Of a stretch of DNA of 64,000 bases, positions 24,735-32,639 are shown piece by piece. A model generated the notes under the pieces. The model had not been told where the DNA came from. It made no database searches and worked only from the letters and a program-made list of their open reading frames with translations. Position numbers and translations under genes: made by a program. Every line of letters begins with the position of its first letter. Position 1 is the first letter of the stretch. Origin of the DNA: a virus; IMG/VR virus record IMGVR_UViG_3300037307_000721. One strand, given 5' to 3'.

Positions 24735-25017
24735 GCCACTCGACAAGCTCACGCTGAGCGACTTGCTCAGCACGGCGCCGAGGCCTGAGATCGCCGCGGC
24801 GACTCTGCTGGGCGGCGCCGTGCGTGGACACCAGGGCGCGAAGTGCGCCATTTGCGGCACGGTCATGCGCGACCTCGGCGAGGACCGGCGCATGGGCGTG
24901 ACCGTCCTCTTCTTCGAGATGCCCGACGACCCCGAGAGCAGCTTCTTCTCCATCGCCTGTAGCGAGCTCTGTCGCGAGCGGGCAATGCGCGCCAGGGGCT
25001 GGAGTCACAAGCCATGA
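24727..25017 (+). CDS. treble-clef-like zinc-finger protein, paralogue of 16524..16784
   Basis: CAICG...IACSELCRERA. Confidence 0.65.
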   Translation: MDEPLDKLTLSDLLSTAPRPEIAAATLLGGAVRGHQGAKCAICGTVMRDLGEDRRMGVTVLFFEMPDDPESSFFSIACSELCRERAMRARGWSHKP

Positions 25018-25325
25018 CGTGGACCGGTGGCCCGCCGGGCTACTGGCTCACTCGAGGAGGTCCCGTGCTCATCACGCAGATGAGCAATGAGCACCTTCTC
25101 AACGCCGTGGCCCGCTGGGCGAGGAAGGCCCAGGAGCTGGGCACGACGGACGAGATGCTGCGTCACCCGAAGTGGCGGGAGCTCTGCGAGGAAGGCTTCA
25201 AGCGCGTCCTGCCCATGGGGCTCGTGGGCGCAGAGCCGACCAAGCCCGACCTCGACCCGGTCCAGGTTGACCGGTTCGGCAACCTGGAGACGGACGATGA
25301 TCAAGGCGATCCTGAGCAACGATGA
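25014..25325 (+). CDS. hypothetical protein
   Basis: ATGA coupling; ITQMSNEHLLNA motif. Confidence 0.7.
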   Translation: MTWTGGPPGYWLTRGGPVLITQMSNEHLLNAVARWARKAQELGTTDEMLRHPKWRELCEEGFKRVLPMGLVGAEPTKPDLDPVQVDRFGNLETDDDQGDPEQR

Positions 25326-25527
25326 CGGCAGCCAGATGTTGCTCCTCGGCCTGTCGAAGACGAACATGGACAAGCTGCTCGAAGGCCTACCCATCGCCGT
25401 CGACATCACGGTGAACGGCGCGCACCTGCGCATCGGCATCGTCGGCGGCGAGACCGAGGAAGCCATCATCGCTGAGCTGCGGCGGCACTTTCCGCAGCTG
25501 CACGGTCGCCCCGACCTGCTGCACTGA
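25297..25527 (+). CDS. small conserved phage protein (MIKA...LLGLSxxN)
   Basis: GGAG SD; GC3 bias. Confidence 0.65.
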   Translation: MIKAILSNDDGSQMLLLGLSKTNMDKLLEGLPIAVDITVNGAHLRIGIVGGETEEAIIAELRRHFPQLHGRPDLLH

Positions 25528-25531
25528 AACC

Positions 25532-25567
25532 CGATTCGGCCCGAATCGCATTTGTCGGATTTCGACA
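25532..25567 (+). terminator. two tandem short hairpins (terminator or operator)
   Basis: CGATTCG-GCC-CGAATCG and TGTCG-GATTT-CGACA just upstream of promoter copy B. Confidence 0.4.
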
Positions 25568-25579
25568 GGTAGATAATTC

Positions 25580-25650
25580 TTGACAACCGCGCATAGCAAC
25601 CTGTAGCCTGGACGGCAGGGCGGGTGGGCAGCAGATTGCTGTGCATTGCC
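25580..25650 (+). promoter_or_regulatory. G-tract promoter element, copy B
   Basis: TTGACA-N18-TAGCCT-GGACGGC-A-GGGCGGGTGGG-...ATTGCTGTGCATTG. Confidence 0.75.
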
Positions 25651-25663
25651 AGCTGGAGGATTC

Positions 25664-25918
25664 ATGATGCCCCTGTTCGACAAGAAAGAGCACGACAAGG
25701 ATCAGAAGAGCTACGAGGGCCGGCAGCACGCGCTCGAGCTCCTGCAGGACACCTGCGTAAAGGGCGGTGTCTGCGCCGCTTGCGGCGCCTCTGCGGGGAT
25801 GTACCTCTCGGGGCTCGCCACGCGCGGCCTGGGCTACGACAAGAAGCGCTTCCTCGAGCTCGCCGCCGAGGTGTGGGAGGACCTGGAGCGCCAGAACCGC
25901 GAGAACCCGGTCAACTGA
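25664..25918 (+). CDS. hypothetical protein
   Basis: GGAGG SD; CAACG. Confidence 0.7.
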   Translation: MMPLFDKKEHDKDQKSYEGRQHALELLQDTCVKGGVCAACGASAGMYLSGLATRGLGYDKKRFLELAAEVWEDLERQNRENPVN

Positions 25919-26277
25919 TGGCGCGCAAGAAGCATCCCTGGGGCAAGCTCGAGTTGGCGGACCTCGGCGGCCTCCTGCACACGGCGCTTCGCAAGGCCTG
26001 CGACAGCCGGACCTCTGGCCTCGCCTGGAACGCGATCGGCGCCATCGAGAAGGGCTGGACGCGCTACCTCGAGGACTGCTTGCCGCACGTGCAGAAGGCG
26101 CGGAACGGACTCGAGCTGCTGGATGCACTGCATCGGCACACCGACGTCAGCATCATGGCGGAGCTCAAGAAGCGCGAGCACCAGGACCTGCTCGTGCGCC
26201 TCGCGCTGGCCCAACTCTCGATGAGCGATTGGCTCGGCATCGTCTACTTCTTCGAGCACGTGGGGGGCCTGCGATGA
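25918..26277 (+). CDS. hypothetical protein
   Basis: TGATG coupling. Confidence 0.7.
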   Translation: MARKKHPWGKLELADLGGLLHTALRKACDSRTSGLAWNAIGAIEKGWTRYLEDCLPHVQKARNGLELLDALHRHTDVSIMAELKKREHQDLLVRLALAQLSMSDWLGIVYFFEHVGGLR

Positions 26278-26513
26278 GCAAGAAGCCGAACGAGTTCTAC
26301 GTCCAGTGCGAGCTGCGGCGGGTCAACGGGCAGATCGACATGGCCTGGATCCCGGAGCAGTACGCTCGCAAGGGCAAGTTCCTTCGCATCCGCAACCACG
26401 GCAAGTGGGAGAACGGATGGGAGGTCACCGCGGTCTACTCGCGCAAGCACGCGGACGAGGTGCTCGAGAACGAGCGCCTCTACCTCGTGCAGCGCGAGGC
26501 CTCCGACATCTGA
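26274..26513 (+). CDS. small conserved phage protein (YVQCEL...AWIP..YA..GK)
   Basis: ATGA coupling. Confidence 0.7.
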   Translation: MSKKPNEFYVQCELRRVNGQIDMAWIPEQYARKGKFLRIRNHGKWENGWEVTAVYSRKHADEVLENERLYLVQREASDI

Positions 26514-26524
26514 GGTCTTGAGCC

Positions 26525-27358
26525 ATGCGAATCGACGTCGAGACGGGCGCCTTCTGGGCGACCATCGTCGGCTCGGAGGGAGAGCTTGACCAGGTCGTCG
26601 GCAAGCTGCGCGAGTTCGCCGCCGAGCTCGCGCCGAGCGGCCAGGCCCGGTCCCTCTGCCTCCGCACGCCTGGGCACCTTCGGGTGCCCGCCGGCGCGGT
26701 GCTCCTGCTGGAGGACCGGCCCGGGGTCCTGAGCGCCCGGGGCTCGGAGCTGGCCGAAGCCGGAGCCAAGCACCTCGAGGCCGCGGGTCTCCTTCGGGAC
26801 TACCAGGCCCGCGCGGTCGGGGCTGCCCTGACCGCACCCCTGGGCCGCGCCACGGTGGACGTGGTGATGGGCGGCGGCAAGACCCGCATCGCGGCCGCCC
26901 TGGCCGCGGTGGCCCAGGCGGTGGGTGGCTTCGGGGCCTGGCTGTACCTGGTCCAGAACGGGGAGCTCGCGCGCCAGGCGGAGGCCGAGATCGCCGAGCT
27001 GCTGCCCATGATGGCCGCGCGCCTCGGCGGACCGCCGGCCCAGGTGACGGCCACCACCTACTCCGGCATCAAGAAGCTGCCGAGCAAGCACTTCGCCGGC
27101 GTCATCGTGGACGAGTGCCACCTGCTGCCGGCGCCAACTCGCTGCCTGCCCTTCGCGCTGGTCAAGGCGACCTGGCGCATCGGATTGTCTGGGACACTCC
27201 TGGACAGGACGGATACGAAGAACGCGCTAATCATTGCGCTGCTTGGCCCACGGGTGTGCGAGGTGAAGATTCCCGAGCTCGAAGAGCAGGAGCACCTCGC
27301 GCGCGGCCGCGTCCAGGTTCTTCGCTATGACCATCGGCTGAAGCGCCTTGTCTCGTAG
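26525..27358 (+). CDS. SF2 (SSL2/ResIII-like) helicase, N-terminal half (RecA1 domain)
   Basis: LRDYQ Q-motif, VMGGGKT motif I, DECH motif II, LSGT motif III; ends at TAG. Confidence 0.85.
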   Translation: MRIDVETGAFWATIVGSEGELDQVVGKLREFAAELAPSGQARSLCLRTPGHLRVPAGAVLLLEDRPGVLSARGSELAEAGAKHLEAAGLLRDYQARAVGAALTAPLGRATVDVVMGGGKTRIAAALAAVAQAVGGFGAWLYLVQNGELARQAEAEIAELLPMMAARLGGPPAQVTATTYSGIKKLPSKHFAGVIVDECHLLPAPTRCLPFALVKATWRIGLSGTLLDRTDTKNALIIALLGPRVCEVKIPELEEQEHLARGRVQVLRYDHRLKRLVS

Positions 27359-27421
27359 CTTCCAGCCGCGCTCCTCCAGGCACCCGACGAGTTTCGTGGA
27401 ACGTAAGGCTGTTTCCACCGA

Positions 27422-27450
27422 TTCGTCTAATGATGTGGAGGACGTATGAT
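27422..27450 (+). promoter_or_regulatory. internal promoter between the helicase halves
   Basis: TTCGTC-N17-TATGAT, then an AGGAGG SD before ATG 27467. Confidence 0.55.
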
Positions 27451-27466
27451 TAGGAGGTTACATTCC

Positions 27467-28228
27467 ATGCACGACCGAGCCGGCAGAACGAAATACGACC
27501 GGCTCGTCGTCGAGGACCCTTACCGTACTGACGCGCTGTGTCGATTCATCGCAGATCTGGAACGTAAGGGCGAGTGGCCGGGCATCGTCTTCGTCCGCAA
27601 GCGGCGCCACGCGGAGCTCTTCGCGAAGGCGCTCAGCGCGGTCCTGGGCAAGCAGATCCCGGCGGTGACCTCGGCGGCGACCTCGCGCCAGGAGCGCGAG
27701 GCGCTGGCTGACCGCATGCGCCGGCGCGACCCGAGCCTGCCCGCGGCGGTCGCGACCGCCGTCTGGTCGACCGGCCTGAACGTCCCGAGCCTGTCCTGGG
27801 TCATGATGGCGGGGGCCGGCCAGGCGCCCATCGGCCTGAAGCAAAGCGCCGGCCGCGCGACCAGGCTCGCGGAGGAGAAGGCCGGCTACACCATCTACGA
27901 CGTCCAGGACGTCGGCCCGGGGCTCGAGTGGGCTCAGGAGCAGGCCGCCCAGCGGATGCGGCACTACGCGGCGGCTGGCTTCGCGGTGGACGAGGTTCGA
28001 CCGCAGGGCGAGGAGCTGGACGACGAAGACGCGATGGCCCTGGCCGACCTGCTCGCCCTCGAGGACCAACTGCCAGCCGCATCGGGGGGCGCGCGCGCCC
28101 CGCCTGTGGACGACCGGACGCAGCGGGGCATGGAGATCGGCGGCAAGCTCGCTGGCTGGTTCTTGGCGCTCCTGGGCTTCGTCCTGTTCTTCATGCTCTA
28201 CGTGACCTGCGGACGCGCTTGCAAATAG
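27467..28228 (+). CDS. SF2 helicase, C-terminal half (RecA2 domain) with C-terminal hydrophobic helix
   Basis: GIVFV motif IV, ATAVWSTGLNVP motif V, QSAGRATR motif VI; tail LAGWFLALLGFVLFFMLYVTC. Confidence 0.8.
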   Translation: MHDRAGRTKYDRLVVEDPYRTDALCRFIADLERKGEWPGIVFVRKRRHAELFAKALSAVLGKQIPAVTSAATSRQEREALADRMRRRDPSLPAAVATAVWSTGLNVPSLSWVMMAGAGQAPIGLKQSAGRATRLAEEKAGYTIYDVQDVGPGLEWAQEQAAQRMRHYAAAGFAVDEVRPQGEELDDEDAMALADLLALEDQLPAASGGARAPPVDDRTQRGMEIGGKLAGWFLALLGFVLFFMLYVTCGRACK

Positions 28229-28247
28229 CGCGCACCCTCGCTATAAT
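28219..28247 (+). promoter_or_regulatory. strong sigma70-type promoter
   Basis: TTGCAA-N17-TATAAT; leader has a TCGAGCC/GGCTCGA inverted repeat. Confidence 0.75.
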
Positions 28248-28305
28248 CAAACCCTCTCGAGCCGGCCAGCAACTGGCTCGACACAACTCGGGAAGGAGCG
28301 GGCGC

Positions 28306-30348
28306 ATGGACAAGCTCTATGTGTACAGGGCCCCGTGCCGCAAATCTTTACGTGTCAAGCCAGATGGCGAAAGCTTTGCGCTCGCCGAGCCCTGCCTTCC
28401 CTGCAACGTCGCGGAGGGCTCCGCGCTTCAGTGCTTGATCGACGCTTGCAAATCGTGCACAGTGCCGTCTTGCACAGTGGAGGGACAACCCATGAATCCT
28501 AGTTCACCTTCGAGTGGAGGCAATGGCGCTCCGAGCACGCTTCCGCGAATCTTTACGCCGCCGCCAGGGGCGCCCCAGGTCGCTCCCCAGGTCGCTCCGA
28601 GCTCGGCGCCGTTGCCGACCCCGGTGCTGCCCACGGCTGAGCCCCCGGCCGCCGCGGCACCCGACCCGGAGCCAGCGCCAGCGGTGGTCGAGCCGGCGCC
28701 CCAGCCGGTCGTCGAGCCCATGCCGGCCAGGCAGGTGCAGATCGTGGTACCGGGCTCGCCGATGGCGGCTGTCGCGGCGGCCGAGCCACCGGGTCAGCCG
28801 GTCGCGATGGATATGTCGCAACCTGAGCCTAAGGCGCAACCTGGAACACCCGCCGCCGCGCTCCTCACAGGCCTGCTTCGGGGCATGAGCGGGGGCGAGG
28901 AGTCGGTCGACGTGGACAAGGTGCTGGCCTCCATCCCAGGCCTGGCCGGCGGACCATCGGAGGGCGGCTTCTCCTGGCACACGCTCGAGCCCTGCATGCA
29001 GTGCTGGCAGAAGGCCTACCTCACGCACGTCCTCGGGCTGACGCCCAAGCAGAAGAGCCACGCGCTCGGCTTCGGCTCGGTCTATCACGCCTGCTGGGAG
29101 GTCTGGTACACCTCCGGTGGGCAGCGTCGCTACGACGAGCCCTGCGACGCGCTTCGGCAGGCCGGAGCGCCGAAGCTCGCCGGCGACGTGCAGCGCCTGG
29201 TCTACACCGAGCTCATGAAGTACGCCCAGGAGGAGGCGACTCGCTGGGACATCCGCGCCGTCGAGCAGAACGCCATCTACTGGGGCGAGCCCGAGCGGAT
29301 CAACGGCAAGCTCGTCCACCTGCCCTTCAGCTGTCGGCACGACTTGCTCATCGGCAAGCGCGACGAGGGCGCGGCTGTCGCTCCTCCGGGCCCCTGCCCC
29401 TCGGGCGTCTGGGTCGTCGACCGCAAGACCGCCTCGGCGCTCACCTACGACCTGACCAAGGGCTACGCGATGGATGGGCAGTTCCTGATGAACGCCCTGA
29501 TCTACACGCGCTCCGACGAGGTCGAGCGGTTCGGGCCCTTCCAGGGCATGATCTTCTCGGTCGCCGTCAAGCACAAGGAGCCCTCGGCGGAGAAGTCCTA
29601 CTTCCGCGTCGAGACCACCGTCGACGAGCCGACCATCGAGGAGTTCTACCGCGACGAGGTCCGGCCCTACGCCATCGAGCTCTACCGCCGGCTGACCTCC
29701 GAGGAATACCGGGCGAACCCGCGACTCTGGCCGAAGAATCGCTCCTCGTGCGTCGGTCGCTACGGCTGCTGCTGGTTCTTTGACATCTGCGACATCGGGG
29801 GCGAGAGCCTGATCGACGTGATGTTCGACTCGGACCCGAAGCGGATCTTCGACGTCGAGCGCCTGGCCGAACCGCCCACCGAGGTGAAGCGCGCGGCGCG
29901 CGCTGGCGACCCGAGCAAGCAGGCGGCCGAGGACGCGCGCAAGACCAAGGCTGAGCACAAGAAGCAGCTCGCCAAGGGCCTCTGCACGAAGTTCCGCGCG
30001 GCTGCCTTGCAGATGGAGCACTTCGCCCGCGGGCGATACCTGGTGCCCAACCACACGCGCAAGACGGTTCTCGACCAGCTGCTGCTCACCCTGCAGGGCC
30101 TGTGGCCCAACGAGACCTCGTTCGCCCTCGGCCCAGACGCCGATGGCAACCTGGACCCGGACGGACTCAACTTCGAGGTCACCGTCACCGAGAAGGGCCT
30201 CGCCTGGGTGTGGATGCAGCCGCCCGTCGAAGGCAAGAAGAAGCCGACAGCCGTCAAGGGCGTTCTCAACTACAAGATCATCGCGGAGGCTATCTGCCAG
30301 GACTGGTGGGACCTCAAGCACCTCGACCCTCGAAGCCCGGCCAAGTAG
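28306..30348 (+). CDS. PD-(D/E)XK nuclease (AddB/Cas4-like, probable Fe-S) with long Pro/Ala-rich N-terminal region
   Basis: CMQCWQKAYL...FGSVYH...AVEQ...RHDLL...VVDRKT...Q...CVGRYGCCWFFDIC. Confidence 0.85.
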   Translation: MDKLYVYRAPCRKSLRVKPDGESFALAEPCLPCNVAEGSALQCLIDACKSCTVPSCTVEGQPMNPSSPSSGGNGAPSTLPRIFTPPPGAPQVAPQVAPSSAPLPTPVLPTAEPPAAAAPDPEPAPAVVEPAPQPVVEPMPARQVQIVVPGSPMAAVAAAEPPGQPVAMDMSQPEPKAQPGTPAAALLTGLLRGMSGGEESVDVDKVLASIPGLAGGPSEGGFSWHTLEPCMQCWQKAYLTHVLGLTPKQKSHALGFGSVYHACWEVWYTSGGQRRYDEPCDALRQAGAPKLAGDVQRLVYTELMKYAQEEATRWDIRAVEQNAIYWGEPERINGKLVHLPFSCRHDLLIGKRDEGAAVAPPGPCPSGVWVVDRKTASALTYDLTKGYAMDGQFLMNALIYTRSDEVERFGPFQGMIFSVAVKHKEPSAEKSYFRVETTVDEPTIEEFYRDEVRPYAIELYRRLTSEEYRANPRLWPKNRSSCVGRYGCCWFFDICDIGGESLIDVMFDSDPKRIFDVERLAEPPTEVKRAARAGDPSKQAAEDARKTKAEHKKQLAKGLCTKFRAAALQMEHFARGRYLVPNHTRKTVLDQLLLTLQGLWPNETSFALGPDADGNLDPDGLNFEVTVTEKGLAWVWMQPPVEGKKKPTAVKGVLNYKIIAEAICQDWWDLKHLDPRSPAK

Positions 30349-30356
30349 GTGACTCG

Positions 30357-32639
30357 ATGTCCTACAGTCCAGAGCTACAGCACCTTCTCGACGGCCTGAA
30401 CGAGTACCAGGTCGCCGCCGTGAACATCGGCGGCGGCCTGGCCTCACTCGTCGGTGTGCCGGGGAGCGGCAAGACCAGAACCATCGTGGCCAGGATGGCA
30501 CGCATGGCCGAAGATGGCCTCGACCCCGACTACGTTCTGGCCATGACCTTCACGCGCGCAGCCGCGTCCGAGATGACGAGCCGACTCGACGCCCTCGGCG
30601 TTCGCAGTGCCAGGGTCGGCACCATCCACTCGGTGTGTCGGCAGATCGCCGCCGCCGAGACCGACCTGTTCGACCACGGCCGACTGGACGAGCGCAACAA
30701 GATGCAGCTCGAGCTGAAGAAGCTCCTCGGCGAGTTTCGTCGCAAGGGCAGCATCGCCAACCTGGGCGTCGACTTCGAGGGCGTATCGCGCTACGTCGAG
30801 GCGTGCAAGGCTTCGGGGCTCTGCTACATCGACGGCGATCCGCTCGGAATGAACAGCCAGGCGGAGAACCACCACCTGGAGCTGGGCAAGAAGTGGGCGC
30901 GCTCAGCTGGCGTCCACTCCAAGATGCTCTCCACGATCTACGTCGAGCTCGAGCGCCGGCGCGGCTCATTGGGCGTCTACGACTTCGACGACATGCTGCT
31001 CTGGGCCTGGATGAAGCTCATCGCCGACCCAGAGGCGCGACTGCGCTGGCGCCAGCGCTGGTCGCTCGTCATCGTCGACGAGGCGCAGGATTCGAACCCC
31101 GTCCAGTGGGACATCGCACGCATGCTGGTGGGTCTCGAGTCCTGCATCGACGGCGTGAGTCACCTCGCCTGCGCACCGAAGCGGGACGCCGAGTTCCACA
31201 ACCTGATGGTTGCCGGCGACCCCAGCCAGTCGATCTACCGCTGGCGCTCGGCTGAGCCGAATCTCTTCGTCGAGTTCGCGACCTCCAAGGACGTCGAGAG
31301 CCTGGTGCTGCCGCTCAACTATCGCTCGAACCAGAGCATCTGCTCGGTGGCCACCGGGTTGGTGCGCGAGAAGAAGTGGCACCTCGGCGGCGAGATCACT
31401 TCGACGAGCGGTCTCCTGCCGCCGACGGCGGTCAGCACCAAGCGCTATGACTCCGTAGAGGAAGAGGCCGAGGACATCGTCAGGAAGTGCATGGAGCTCG
31501 CCGAGGACGGCCGCGGCCTGCGCTCCTGCGCCGTGCTCTCGCGACTGCGAGTCGGGCTGGACCTCGTCGAGATCTCTTGCATCCGGCACCGCATCCGCTA
31601 CATCAAGCAGGCCGCCGGTTCCTTCTTCGAGAGCAAGGAGGTTCGCGACGTGCTGGCCTACTTGCGCGTCGCCGCCAACCTCGATCCGGATGGGACCTGG
31701 GCGCGGCACATCATCAACCGCCCGTTCCGCTACCTGGGCGCCAGCTACATCGGCAAGGCAGCGGCCTGGGCCGAGGCGCGCGGCATGTCCATCCTCGACG
31801 GGCTCGAGGCCTGCTCGGACGACATCAACTACAAGCAGCGGCAGGCCGTGCGCGACCTCTACTCCCTGCTGCAGAAGCTGAACCAGATCGCCGTCAAGGC
31901 CGAGGCTCGCTACCAGCAAGCCGAGCGCGAGCTGGCCGAACGCAAGGCCCGCGGCGAGGCCGGGTTGCCCGACGATCCGCTGGCCCTGCTGCACAGGGCG
32001 AACGGCGCGCAGGAGGACGATGAGCTCGTCTCGGACGAGACTCCGCTCATTCTCGAGGGGCCGGCCGACATGATCGCCCTCGTCCTGCGCGAGACCGACT
32101 ACATCGAAGAGCTGCGACGAGAGGAGGGCCTCCTCGGGATGGACGAGTCGCGCATCGCGGCGCTGGCCGCCCTGCGGCGCATGGCCTTCATGTTCCCCAC
32201 CACGAACACCTTCCTCTCGTACGTGGACGCCCTGACGGTGGCCGTGGAGCAGGCCCGCAAGACCGGCTTGCGGCTCCAGGAGGGTGCGCGGGAGGACGCC
32301 CTGGTGCTCTCCACCATCCACCGGGCCAAGGGCCTCGAGTGGCGCCACGTCTTCCTGATGGATGTAGTACAAGGTAGGTTTCCGTGTGCCAAGTCGATGG
32401 ATGCGGACGAGGAACTGCGGCTCCTGTACGTGGCCCTGACTCGAGCCATGGACTCCTGCCAGGTCTCGTACGCCGGGCCGCCCGAGAGCGCCGGGGAGCG
32501 CAAGCCGGTCCGATCCTCCTATATCCTCCTGATCGAGCAGCAGCTACGCGAGCTGGCGCAGACAGTAAGAGCTGCCGCGAAATCAAAGGCGGATTTGAGC
32601 GAGCCAAAAAGTCATCACGCGGTTCGCGATGGAGCGTAA
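30357..32639 (+). CDS. uvrD: UvrD/PcrA-family SF1A DNA helicase
   Basis: LNEYQ, GVPGSGKT, DEAQD, GDPSQSIYRWR, LNYRS, STIHRAKGLEW, LYVALTRA. Confidence 0.95.
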   Translation: MSYSPELQHLLDGLNEYQVAAVNIGGGLASLVGVPGSGKTRTIVARMARMAEDGLDPDYVLAMTFTRAAASEMTSRLDALGVRSARVGTIHSVCRQIAAAETDLFDHGRLDERNKMQLELKKLLGEFRRKGSIANLGVDFEGVSRYVEACKASGLCYIDGDPLGMNSQAENHHLELGKKWARSAGVHSKMLSTIYVELERRRGSLGVYDFDDMLLWAWMKLIADPEARLRWRQRWSLVIVDEAQDSNPVQWDIARMLVGLESCIDGVSHLACAPKRDAEFHNLMVAGDPSQSIYRWRSAEPNLFVEFATSKDVESLVLPLNYRSNQSICSVATGLVREKKWHLGGEITSTSGLLPPTAVSTKRYDSVEEEAEDIVRKCMELAEDGRGLRSCAVLSRLRVGLDLVEISCIRHRIRYIKQAAGSFFESKEVRDVLAYLRVAANLDPDGTWARHIINRPFRYLGASYIGKAAAWAEARGMSILDGLEACSDDINYKQRQAVRDLYSLLQKLNQIAVKAEARYQQAERELAERKARGEAGLPDDPLALLHRANGAQEDDELVSDETPLILEGPADMIALVLRETDYIEELRREEGLLGMDESRIAALAALRRMAFMFPTTNTFLSYVDALTVAVEQARKTGLRLQEGAREDALVLSTIHRAKGLEWRHVFLMDVVQGRFPCAKSMDADEELRLLYVALTRAMDSCQVSYAGPPESAGERKPVRSSYILLIEQQLRELAQTVRAAAKSKADLSEPKSHHAVRDGA

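Follow-up and report, generated by a model that had tools for sequence, protein, structure and literature searches.

A helicase motor has two RecA lobes connected through a hinge, and it works by opening and closing the cleft between them. In XPB/Rad25/Ssl2 (PDB 5tnu, 6p4f, 2fwr and 7o4k), an N-terminal domain, both lobes and the flexible hinge lie on a single chain that has no membrane anchor. UvsW of phage T4 (PDB 2oca) and D10 of phage T5, which are encoded among recombination and replication genes, are likewise single polypeptides and lack a hydrophobic tail; XPB and UvsW have been described as the closest characterised homologues of D10, a branch-migration helicase (PMC5180179). A phage enzyme that has been divided is also on record: NrdA of Aeromonas phage Aeh1, an essential enzyme, was cut by mobE inside its catalytic core into NrdA-a and NrdA-b, and the pieces are functional by non-covalent assembly (Crona et al. 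2010, PMC3045599). Here we report on two adjacent open reading frames (ORFs) in IMG/VR virus record IMGVR_UViG_3300037307_000721, of which a stretch of 64,000 nucleotides (nt), referred to from this point on as the window, was analysed. The two ORFs very probably encode the two subunits of one superfamily 2 (SF2) DNA helicase of the XPB/UvsW/T5-D10 type, cut once, anciently, at the RecA hinge and inherited in pieces by a large clade of uncultured phages. The window comes from a 111-kb IMG/VR virus contig with an estimated completeness of 67%, and its helicase-half proteins are also present on a 193.6-kb contig.

The two open reading frames

The first ORF, the helicase N-half (26525..27358; all features given here are on the + strand), encodes 277 amino acids (aa) that comprise an N-terminal domain and the first RecA lobe (RecA1) with motifs Q, I, Ia, II and III, and it ends in a TAG stop. 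The second, the C-half (27467..28228), encodes 253 aa, in which the second lobe (RecA2), bearing motifs IV, V and VI, is followed by an acidic linker and then by a hydrophobic helix at the C-terminus. The database gene call for the C-half (P0001, 253 aa) begins at 27467, with an alternative ATG at 27446, and a Shine-Dalgarno sequence, AGGAGG (27452..27457), stands 9 nt ahead of the C-half ATG. Between the two lies a spacer of 108 nt (27359..27466) with a lower G+C content (0.49-0.56). In the window both ORFs share one frame, in which they are separated by four stops, namely the TAG of the N-half itself followed by TAA, TAA and TGA in the spacer. An original prediction, made from the letters of this DNA, had placed motifs Q to III upstream of TAG 27358 and motifs IV to VI in a separate ORF of the same frame, and had noted the three further stops, the hexamer pair TTCGTC-N17-TATGAT and the AGGAGG in the spacer; all of these were located again when the sequence was re-read.

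The N-half matches Pfam ResIII (E = 6e-8) and positions 273-455 of phrog_16, annotated as 'DNA helicase' (E = 4.2e-19). The C-half matches Pfam Helicase_C (E = 1.6e-10) and positions 470-600 of phrog_16 (E = 8.3e-15), and both the ResIII and Helicase_C scores exceed the Pfam cut-offs. Because the halves match adjacent positions of phrog_16, the cut lies in the linker that joins the two RecA-like lobes. The N-half motifs read RDYQ, GGGKT, DECH and SGT, and those of the C-half IVFVR, WSTGLNVP and QSAGRATR. In alignments of C-halves (A1) and N-halves (A2) the SF2 motifs are invariant or nearly so, including the K, D and E of motifs I and II (A2) and the QxxGR of motif VI (A1). The catalytic motifs are intact in both halves, as the original prediction had it, and nothing is missing relative to fused relatives. 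The two RecA lobes do not share a polypeptide here: the four in-frame stops and the separate start codons divide them, and the two-gene state is kept in relatives.

Split and fused relatives

A search with the C-half returned nine further proteins that stand alone, 237-275 aa long and 44-89% identical, and in the relatives an ORF of ~250-290 aa with ResIII only lies directly 5' of the C-half. Pairs of an N-half and a C-half occur at loci L043, L044, L046/47/49, L050, L051, L052, L053, L055, L058, L059, L060, L065 and L094. A comparison of fused with split forms, which had been proposed along with the original prediction, finds the close relatives all divided and the fused forms only at a distance: the split is present in every closer relative examined (12 distinct loci), and the fused IMG/VR relatives are single ORFs of 480-508 codons at ~30% identity, in which both halves match back to back in one frame. 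Aligned with the fused forms, the window shows no loss and carries ~40 extra codon-equivalents at the RecA1/RecA2 linker.

The position of the cut is consistent. The N-half ends ~8 residues past the last aligned strand, the C-half starts ~8 residues before a conserved YDR, every C-half has its own start codon at a conserved position, and the N-half stop is TAG in six of eight lineages. The gap itself varies widely. At L060 (337-346) the N-half stop and the C-half start overlap as ATGA, giving a spacer-free split; such overlaps are typical of translational coupling. The spacer measures 75 nt in L051 and L052, 87 nt in L053, 107-109 nt in L044, the window, L043 and L094, 135 nt in L050, 166 nt in the L047 group and ~470 AT-rich nt in L059 (3028-3500). 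Short repeats (tattag, aataggtt) fill the L059 spacer, in which no ORF of any size is present. Among relatives, the C-half is shifted by 0, 1 or 2 relative to the frame of the N-half. In L048/L064 (IMGVR_UViG_3300009514_000035; L048:1-1612) the C-half is preceded by an unrelated small Cys-rich ORF. Since the frames vary, the spacers range from 0 to ~470 nt and in one case the halves may be unlinked, the two are independent translation units.

The division extends well beyond these loci. In a phmmer search with the N-half, run on 1.84 billion cluster representatives, the top ~115 matches were almost all 200-320 aa long, and fused proteins of 440-540 aa entered the list only from E ~1e-16. Three longer proteins (583-684 aa) are exceptions; each aligns in two stretches and has Hint/intein signatures at DECH. 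In a maximum-likelihood tree, 88 of the 90 half-length rows (representatives of 50% clusters) lie on one side of a branch whose support in the Shimodaira-Hasegawa-like approximate likelihood ratio test (SH-aLRT) is 99, with all fused rows on the opposite side; the two stray short rows may be fragments. The tree topology fits a single origin of the split. Ratios of nonsynonymous to synonymous substitution rates (dN/dS) by the Nei-Gojobori method are 0.13-0.36 for N-halves and 0.21-0.37 for C-halves. The original prediction had taken the locus for a genuine two-gene helicase, neither an error nor a case of readthrough, and had named relaxed dN/dS as the sign of decay. Its view is borne out by a split that is clade-wide and by purifying selection on both halves (0.13-0.37 overall). 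No close homologue was found in cultured phages (a collection of 50,697 records) or in cellular genomes (185,579 species genomes), and a search of the literature on split helicases in phage and on split XPB found no description of this case.

Helicase family and predicted fold

A profile of 24 N-halves found its best match in archaeal XPB (5tnu/6p4f; E = 5.4e-17), with eukaryotic XPB and T4 UvsW ranking lower, and a C-half profile matched generic helicase C-domains, UvsW and XPB among them. As input for AlphaFold, the whole stretch of both ORFs was translated with the stops read as residues and the spacer serving as a junk linker, and was folded on the basis of an alignment that included both fused forms and halves. 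The resulting read-through model is one XPB-like core with a predicted local distance difference test (pLDDT) score of 87.1 and a predicted template modelling (pTM) score of 0.80. Disorder is confined to the spacer-encoded residues 285-315 and to an acidic stretch (492-539), and the terminal helix spans residues 542-566. A Foldseek search with the model placed XPB/Ssl2 first (E = 1.6e-17), with UvsW at E = 6.7e-15.

Because of these profile and Foldseek matches, and because the D10 study names XPB and UvsW, we class the split protein as an XPB/UvsW/D10-like helicase. Strict XPB membership is not claimed. Like XPB, the pair has an N-terminal domain, two RecA lobes and, in the model, a flexible region at the hinge, and it carries a D/E-R-x-D motif after motif III where XPB has RED. 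That position, however, holds DRTD in the window and DRTD, DRQD or DRGD among the sequences compared, identity to XPB is only 13-23%, and the chain is divided and bears a predicted anchor. Like UvsW and D10, the pair is phage-encoded, matches phrog_16 over both lobes and lies among recombination and replication genes; it differs from both in being divided and in its hydrophobic tail.

Origin of the split

The likeness to Aeh1 NrdA lies in the division of a phage enzyme into two genes inside the catalytic core, and, as expected of genes in pieces, both pieces of the helicase are intact, conserved and under selection. In Aeh1, however, the mobE endonuclease gene still lies between the pieces and insertion-derived tails are required, whereas the helicase split is far older, is clade-wide and has added few terminal residues. 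None of the 14 spacers read (the window and relatives, 0 to ~470 nt) contains an endonuclease gene. A GIY-YIG gene is present in L046/L049, but ~600 nt upstream of the N-half and not between the halves. By analogy with Aeh1, the split probably goes back to a mobile element that later disappeared; analogy is the only guide here because no endonuclease gene remains in any gap.

If the two ORFs are subunits of one helicase, an XPB/UvsW-type enzyme joins the short list of phage 'genes in pieces', and a large natural clade that has long done without a covalent hinge offers a system in which to ask what part the linker plays in coupling ATP hydrolysis to translocation. The same reading bears on annotation: ~100 clusters (50% identity) of 'ResIII-only' and 'Helicase_C-only' proteins would be pairs and not fragments.

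The C-terminal tail

The C-half of the window ends in a predicted tail-anchor transmembrane helix (28148..28204; C-half residues 228-246), followed by TCGRACK. The hydrophobic helix of about 20 aa originally reported at this end was recovered as a 19-aa hydrophobic run within the last 26 residues, with a Kyte-Doolittle score of 2.36 in a 19-aa window. In all 13 C-halves the hydrophobic maximum lies at the extreme C-terminal end (1.4-2.8 on the same scale), and the arrangement is that of a tail anchor, a single hydrophobic segment of ~19-23 aa in the last ~30 residues and no other transmembrane segment. The sequence of the tail is not conserved among C-halves, as is typical of membrane anchors.

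The membrane anchor attributed to the C-half by the original prediction thus holds up, as a prediction, in all C-halves examined, but not as a feature specific to the split: a similar tail occurs in 6 of 32 fused relatives, and five of those six branch basally on the fused side of the tree. Because fused relatives carry similar tails, the tail anchor probably predates the split and is not its consequence. The gene that follows one fused, tailed helicase (L106) bears a UvrD-like QSIYRWRG-type motif, which suggests that the tailed fused form is linked with a UvrD-type helicase; identification of this neighbour as a nuclease homologue was rejected in favour of the UvrD-like motif. The conserved tail anchor, in split and some fused forms, points to membrane-tethered recombination or repair, of which no description for this helicase family was found in the literature searched. 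That assembly takes place at a site of DNA injection or replication, as had been proposed, is speculation.

The spacer

Spacers are largely unalignable between lineages, except for a conserved motif, TTCGTGGAACGTAAGG (27393..27408 in the window), which lies ~60-70 nt before the C-half start. It takes the form TTC(G/A)TGGAA(C/G)GTAAG(G/A) in the wider group to which the window belongs, whereas L051-L053 and L048 have ATTGTAAGG; in L048 the C-half retains the motif despite the different upstream gene. All spacer-bearing lineages except L059 and L065, which have ATAAGG variants, carry the motif or its core, GTAAGG, ahead of the C-half. In the window it forms the 5' arm of a hairpin, GTGGAA/TTCCAC (27396-27418), and is a possible start of a micro-ORF.

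Part of the motif, the 11-mer GGAACGTAAGG, occurs twice in 111 kb, both times at this locus, against 0.03 occurrences expected per strand. The first copy is in the spacer (27398-27408). The second, 161 nt downstream (27559..27569), lies inside the C-half coding sequence, where it supplies codons for LERKG. Pairs at 161-162 nt are also present in L043 (969/1130), L047 (3958/4120) and L049. The pair is kept although the C-halves of relatives are only ~51% identical, and the coding copy uses GAA and CGT, codons expected to be rare at 65% G+C. A role as a genome-wide promoter or repeat was rejected on the count of two copies in 111 kb. The related string TTCRTGGAACGTAAGG was also set aside, as its 24 matches in IMG/VR have no helicase nearby and their number fits a rough chance estimate. 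An anti-start-site RNA common to all lineages was rejected as well, since the duplex of the motif with the C-half start beats shuffled sequences only in the window, L043, L094 and L044 (0.02-0.10) and does no better than shuffles in L047, L050, L051, L053 and L048.

As RNA, the spacer folds at -44.4 kcal/mol and is more structured than shuffled sequence (z = -2.86). A search of 27000-27800 against Rfam gave no match at E values up to 1, either to a group I or II intron or to any other RNA family. The sequence right after the N-half stop (27359-27377) resembles an anti-Shine-Dalgarno sequence (CTTCC…CTCCTCC), and the minimum-energy fold pairs it with the GGAGG and AGGAGG before the C-half start. 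In such a fold, ribosomes terminating on the N-half could free the ribosome site of the C-half. A replication origin in the spacer was considered and rejected, as the cumulative GC skew shows no clear turn there.

A micro-ORF that starts at the motif is weakly supported by the sequences. The candidate begins with GTG at 27396 (MERKAVSTDSSNDVEDV; MERKAVS…) and ends with TGA at 27447-27449. It is open in seven clade-A loci, and in six of these it ends no more than 17 nt from the C-half start or overlaps it by 4 nt; the counterparts in L043, L094, L044, L047 and L055 stop no more than 17 nt away from the C-half ATG or share an ATGA overlap with it. Conservation is limited to the first 4-7 codons, and an open stretch of 17-26 codons is expected by chance at 65% G+C.

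Proposed mechanism

As two subunits of one helicase, the halves would be made as separate proteins, with the C-half initiated from its own AGGAGG-ATG. Non-covalent docking would then rebuild the ATP site, to which the N-half would contribute Walker A and B and the C-half the arginine finger of motif VI. The tail anchor of the C-half would hold the complex at the inner membrane by way of an acidic disordered tether of ~45 residues, and the partners of the enzyme in recombination-dependent replication or repair would be the exonuclease-like protein and the UvrD helicase encoded next to it. A further step, that the split is itself put to use, is doubtful, and we offer it tentatively. Membrane-tethered RecA2 might be an inert dock with ATPase activity arising only where soluble RecA1 joins it, which would confine activity to a site of replication or recombination at the membrane. 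The spacer element TTCrTGGAAsGTAAGG, which in the window's subgroup can pair with the start region of the C-half, might then be an RNA switch that couples C-half to N-half translation at 1:1.

Several observations weigh against the two-subunit reading. The closeness of the halves in the structure model is imposed by the single chain, and both their binding and a joint ATPase remain predicted. Membrane insertion of the tail is a prediction from hydrophobicity only, and the 'split' status of most of the 88 representatives in the tree was judged by length alone. L048/L064 has no N-half within 1.6 kb upstream of its C-half or on its 52.5-kb contig (~50% complete), so the halves might act apart. 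Finally, the spacer carries a conserved motif, and a promoter of a non-sigma-70 kind may conceivably lie there.

Alternative explanations

The last of these points touches on the alternative that survives best, although we consider it improbable: a promoter in the spacer drives the C-half, and helicase activity requires two independently regulated promoters. The original prediction had proposed as much on the basis of TTCGTC-N17-TATGAT (27422..27450; -35 at 27422-27427, -10 at 27445-27450). The candidate does pair a good -10-like TATGAT with a 17-nt spacing in a spacer of low G+C, but TTCGTC agrees with TTGACA at only two of six positions, and a promoter scan made no call in any of the four spacers covered (the window, L051, L047 and L044). 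Neither are the hexamers kept in L043, at 85-89% identity, or in L094, and the ATGA overlap of L060 leaves no room for a promoter between the halves. The L051/L052 spacer opens with a hairpin of 10-11 bp followed by GTTTT. No terminator was called after the N-half in the window. The spacer motif, which is kept upstream of the L048 C-half behind a different gene, resembles on a by-eye reading the GGAAC -35 of the extracytoplasmic function (ECF) type, with CGAT or CGTT 16-17 nt later in the window, L043 and L044, but this spacing fails in L094, L047, L050 and clade B.

The only promoter-like site that the scan called in 25000-31000 lies elsewhere. This sigma-70-like sequence, TTGCAA-N17-TATAAT (28219..28247; 10 of 12 matches), is found just 3' of the C-half, before the nuclease and UvrD genes, and has equivalents in the same place in L047 (4820-4848) and L044 (4738-4766). 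Because a promoter-like site is conserved after the C-half and none was called in the spacer, the two halves probably share a transcript as the final pair of genes in one unit, and a new unit begins after them. The earlier claims that the C-half has a promoter of its own and that activity needs both promoters on are therefore not upheld. A second TTGCAA is present inside the start of the next gene (window 28445-28480).

Less probable is that the halves have separate jobs, the N-half as a soluble nucleotide- or DNA-binding protein and the C-half as a membrane-anchored adaptor, and form no joint motor. Apart from the lone C-half of L048/L064, the case for it comes from L047 and L049, whose N-halves are identical and whose C-halves are only 69% identical, a mismatch which implies that the halves have been exchanged independently. 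Against this stand the residues that are meaningful only together, which are invariant or nearly so across both halves, the adjacency of the halves in 12 of 12 other distinct loci, and the similar dN/dS of the two.

It is very improbable that a single chain is restored from the two pieces, whether through an intron or protein splicing or through readthrough, frameshifting or ribosome bypassing. The shared frame in the window, the recurrent TAG of the N-half and the structured spacer RNA might seem to invite such a reading, but four in-frame stops intervene, the frame offset takes all three values and the gap runs from an overlap to ~470 nt (0-166 nt in most loci). The varying gaps and offsets rule out readthrough and make bypassing or splicing very unlikely. 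Moreover, the Rfam search was empty, no Hint/intein sequence is found at the junction, and each C-half starts with its own start codon at the conserved position. A split intein or trans-splicing was rejected, there being no Hint halves or other extra domains at the junction. As for a dying gene or assembly artefact, in which the helicase was disrupted by an insertion and its remnants are in decay, the metagenome-assembly source and a spacer composition unlike its flanks would permit it, but it is practically excluded because dN/dS is low, well under 1, in both halves, and the same architecture recurs in independent samples and assemblies (39-89% identity), with intact motifs, in a monophyletic clade of 88 representatives.

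Neighbouring genes, possible exchange of halves and inteins

The two helicase genes share a gene order with their relatives, which runs small ORF, N-half, C-half, exonuclease-like gene and UvrD. The small conserved ORF of the window (26274..26513; 79 aa) ends 11 nt before the N-half start, and ORFs of 79-85 aa lie directly 5' of the N-half in L094, L044, L046, L050, L051 and L052. The 79-aa ORF has no Pfam or PHROG match. Downstream of the C-half, an exonuclease-like protein of 680 aa (28306..30348) matches phrog_1218, 'exonuclease' (E = 2.5e-13); the gene is of PD-(D/E)XK type in relatives, with faint or weak matches to Pfam PDDEXK_1 in the L046 and L051 orthologues. It is followed by a UvrD-like superfamily 1 (SF1) helicase (30357..32639) that is syntenic in all relatives with enough flank, and UvrD Pfam families were found on the orthologues in L043, L044, L046, L048 and L051.

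The divergence between L047 and L049 is bounded on both sides. The two contigs are 100% identical over ~3.2 kb, to one base past the coding copy of the motif, then diverge (L047:4131-4893; down to ~40% identity) through the remaining C-half, the tail and the intergenic promoter region, and identity resumes ~30 nt into the next gene. Either a C-half cassette has been swapped or the assembly is a mosaic at strain level.

In-frame insertions of ~1050 nt with Hint/intein signatures interrupt the N-half at DECH in L055 (1990-3044) and L056 (361-1415), and intein-like insertions at DECH are likewise carried by proteins P0035, P0077 and P0118, all members of the split clade. Insertions at this site fit a protein that has to function. 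Faint intein matches are also present in the UvrD genes of L044 and L046.

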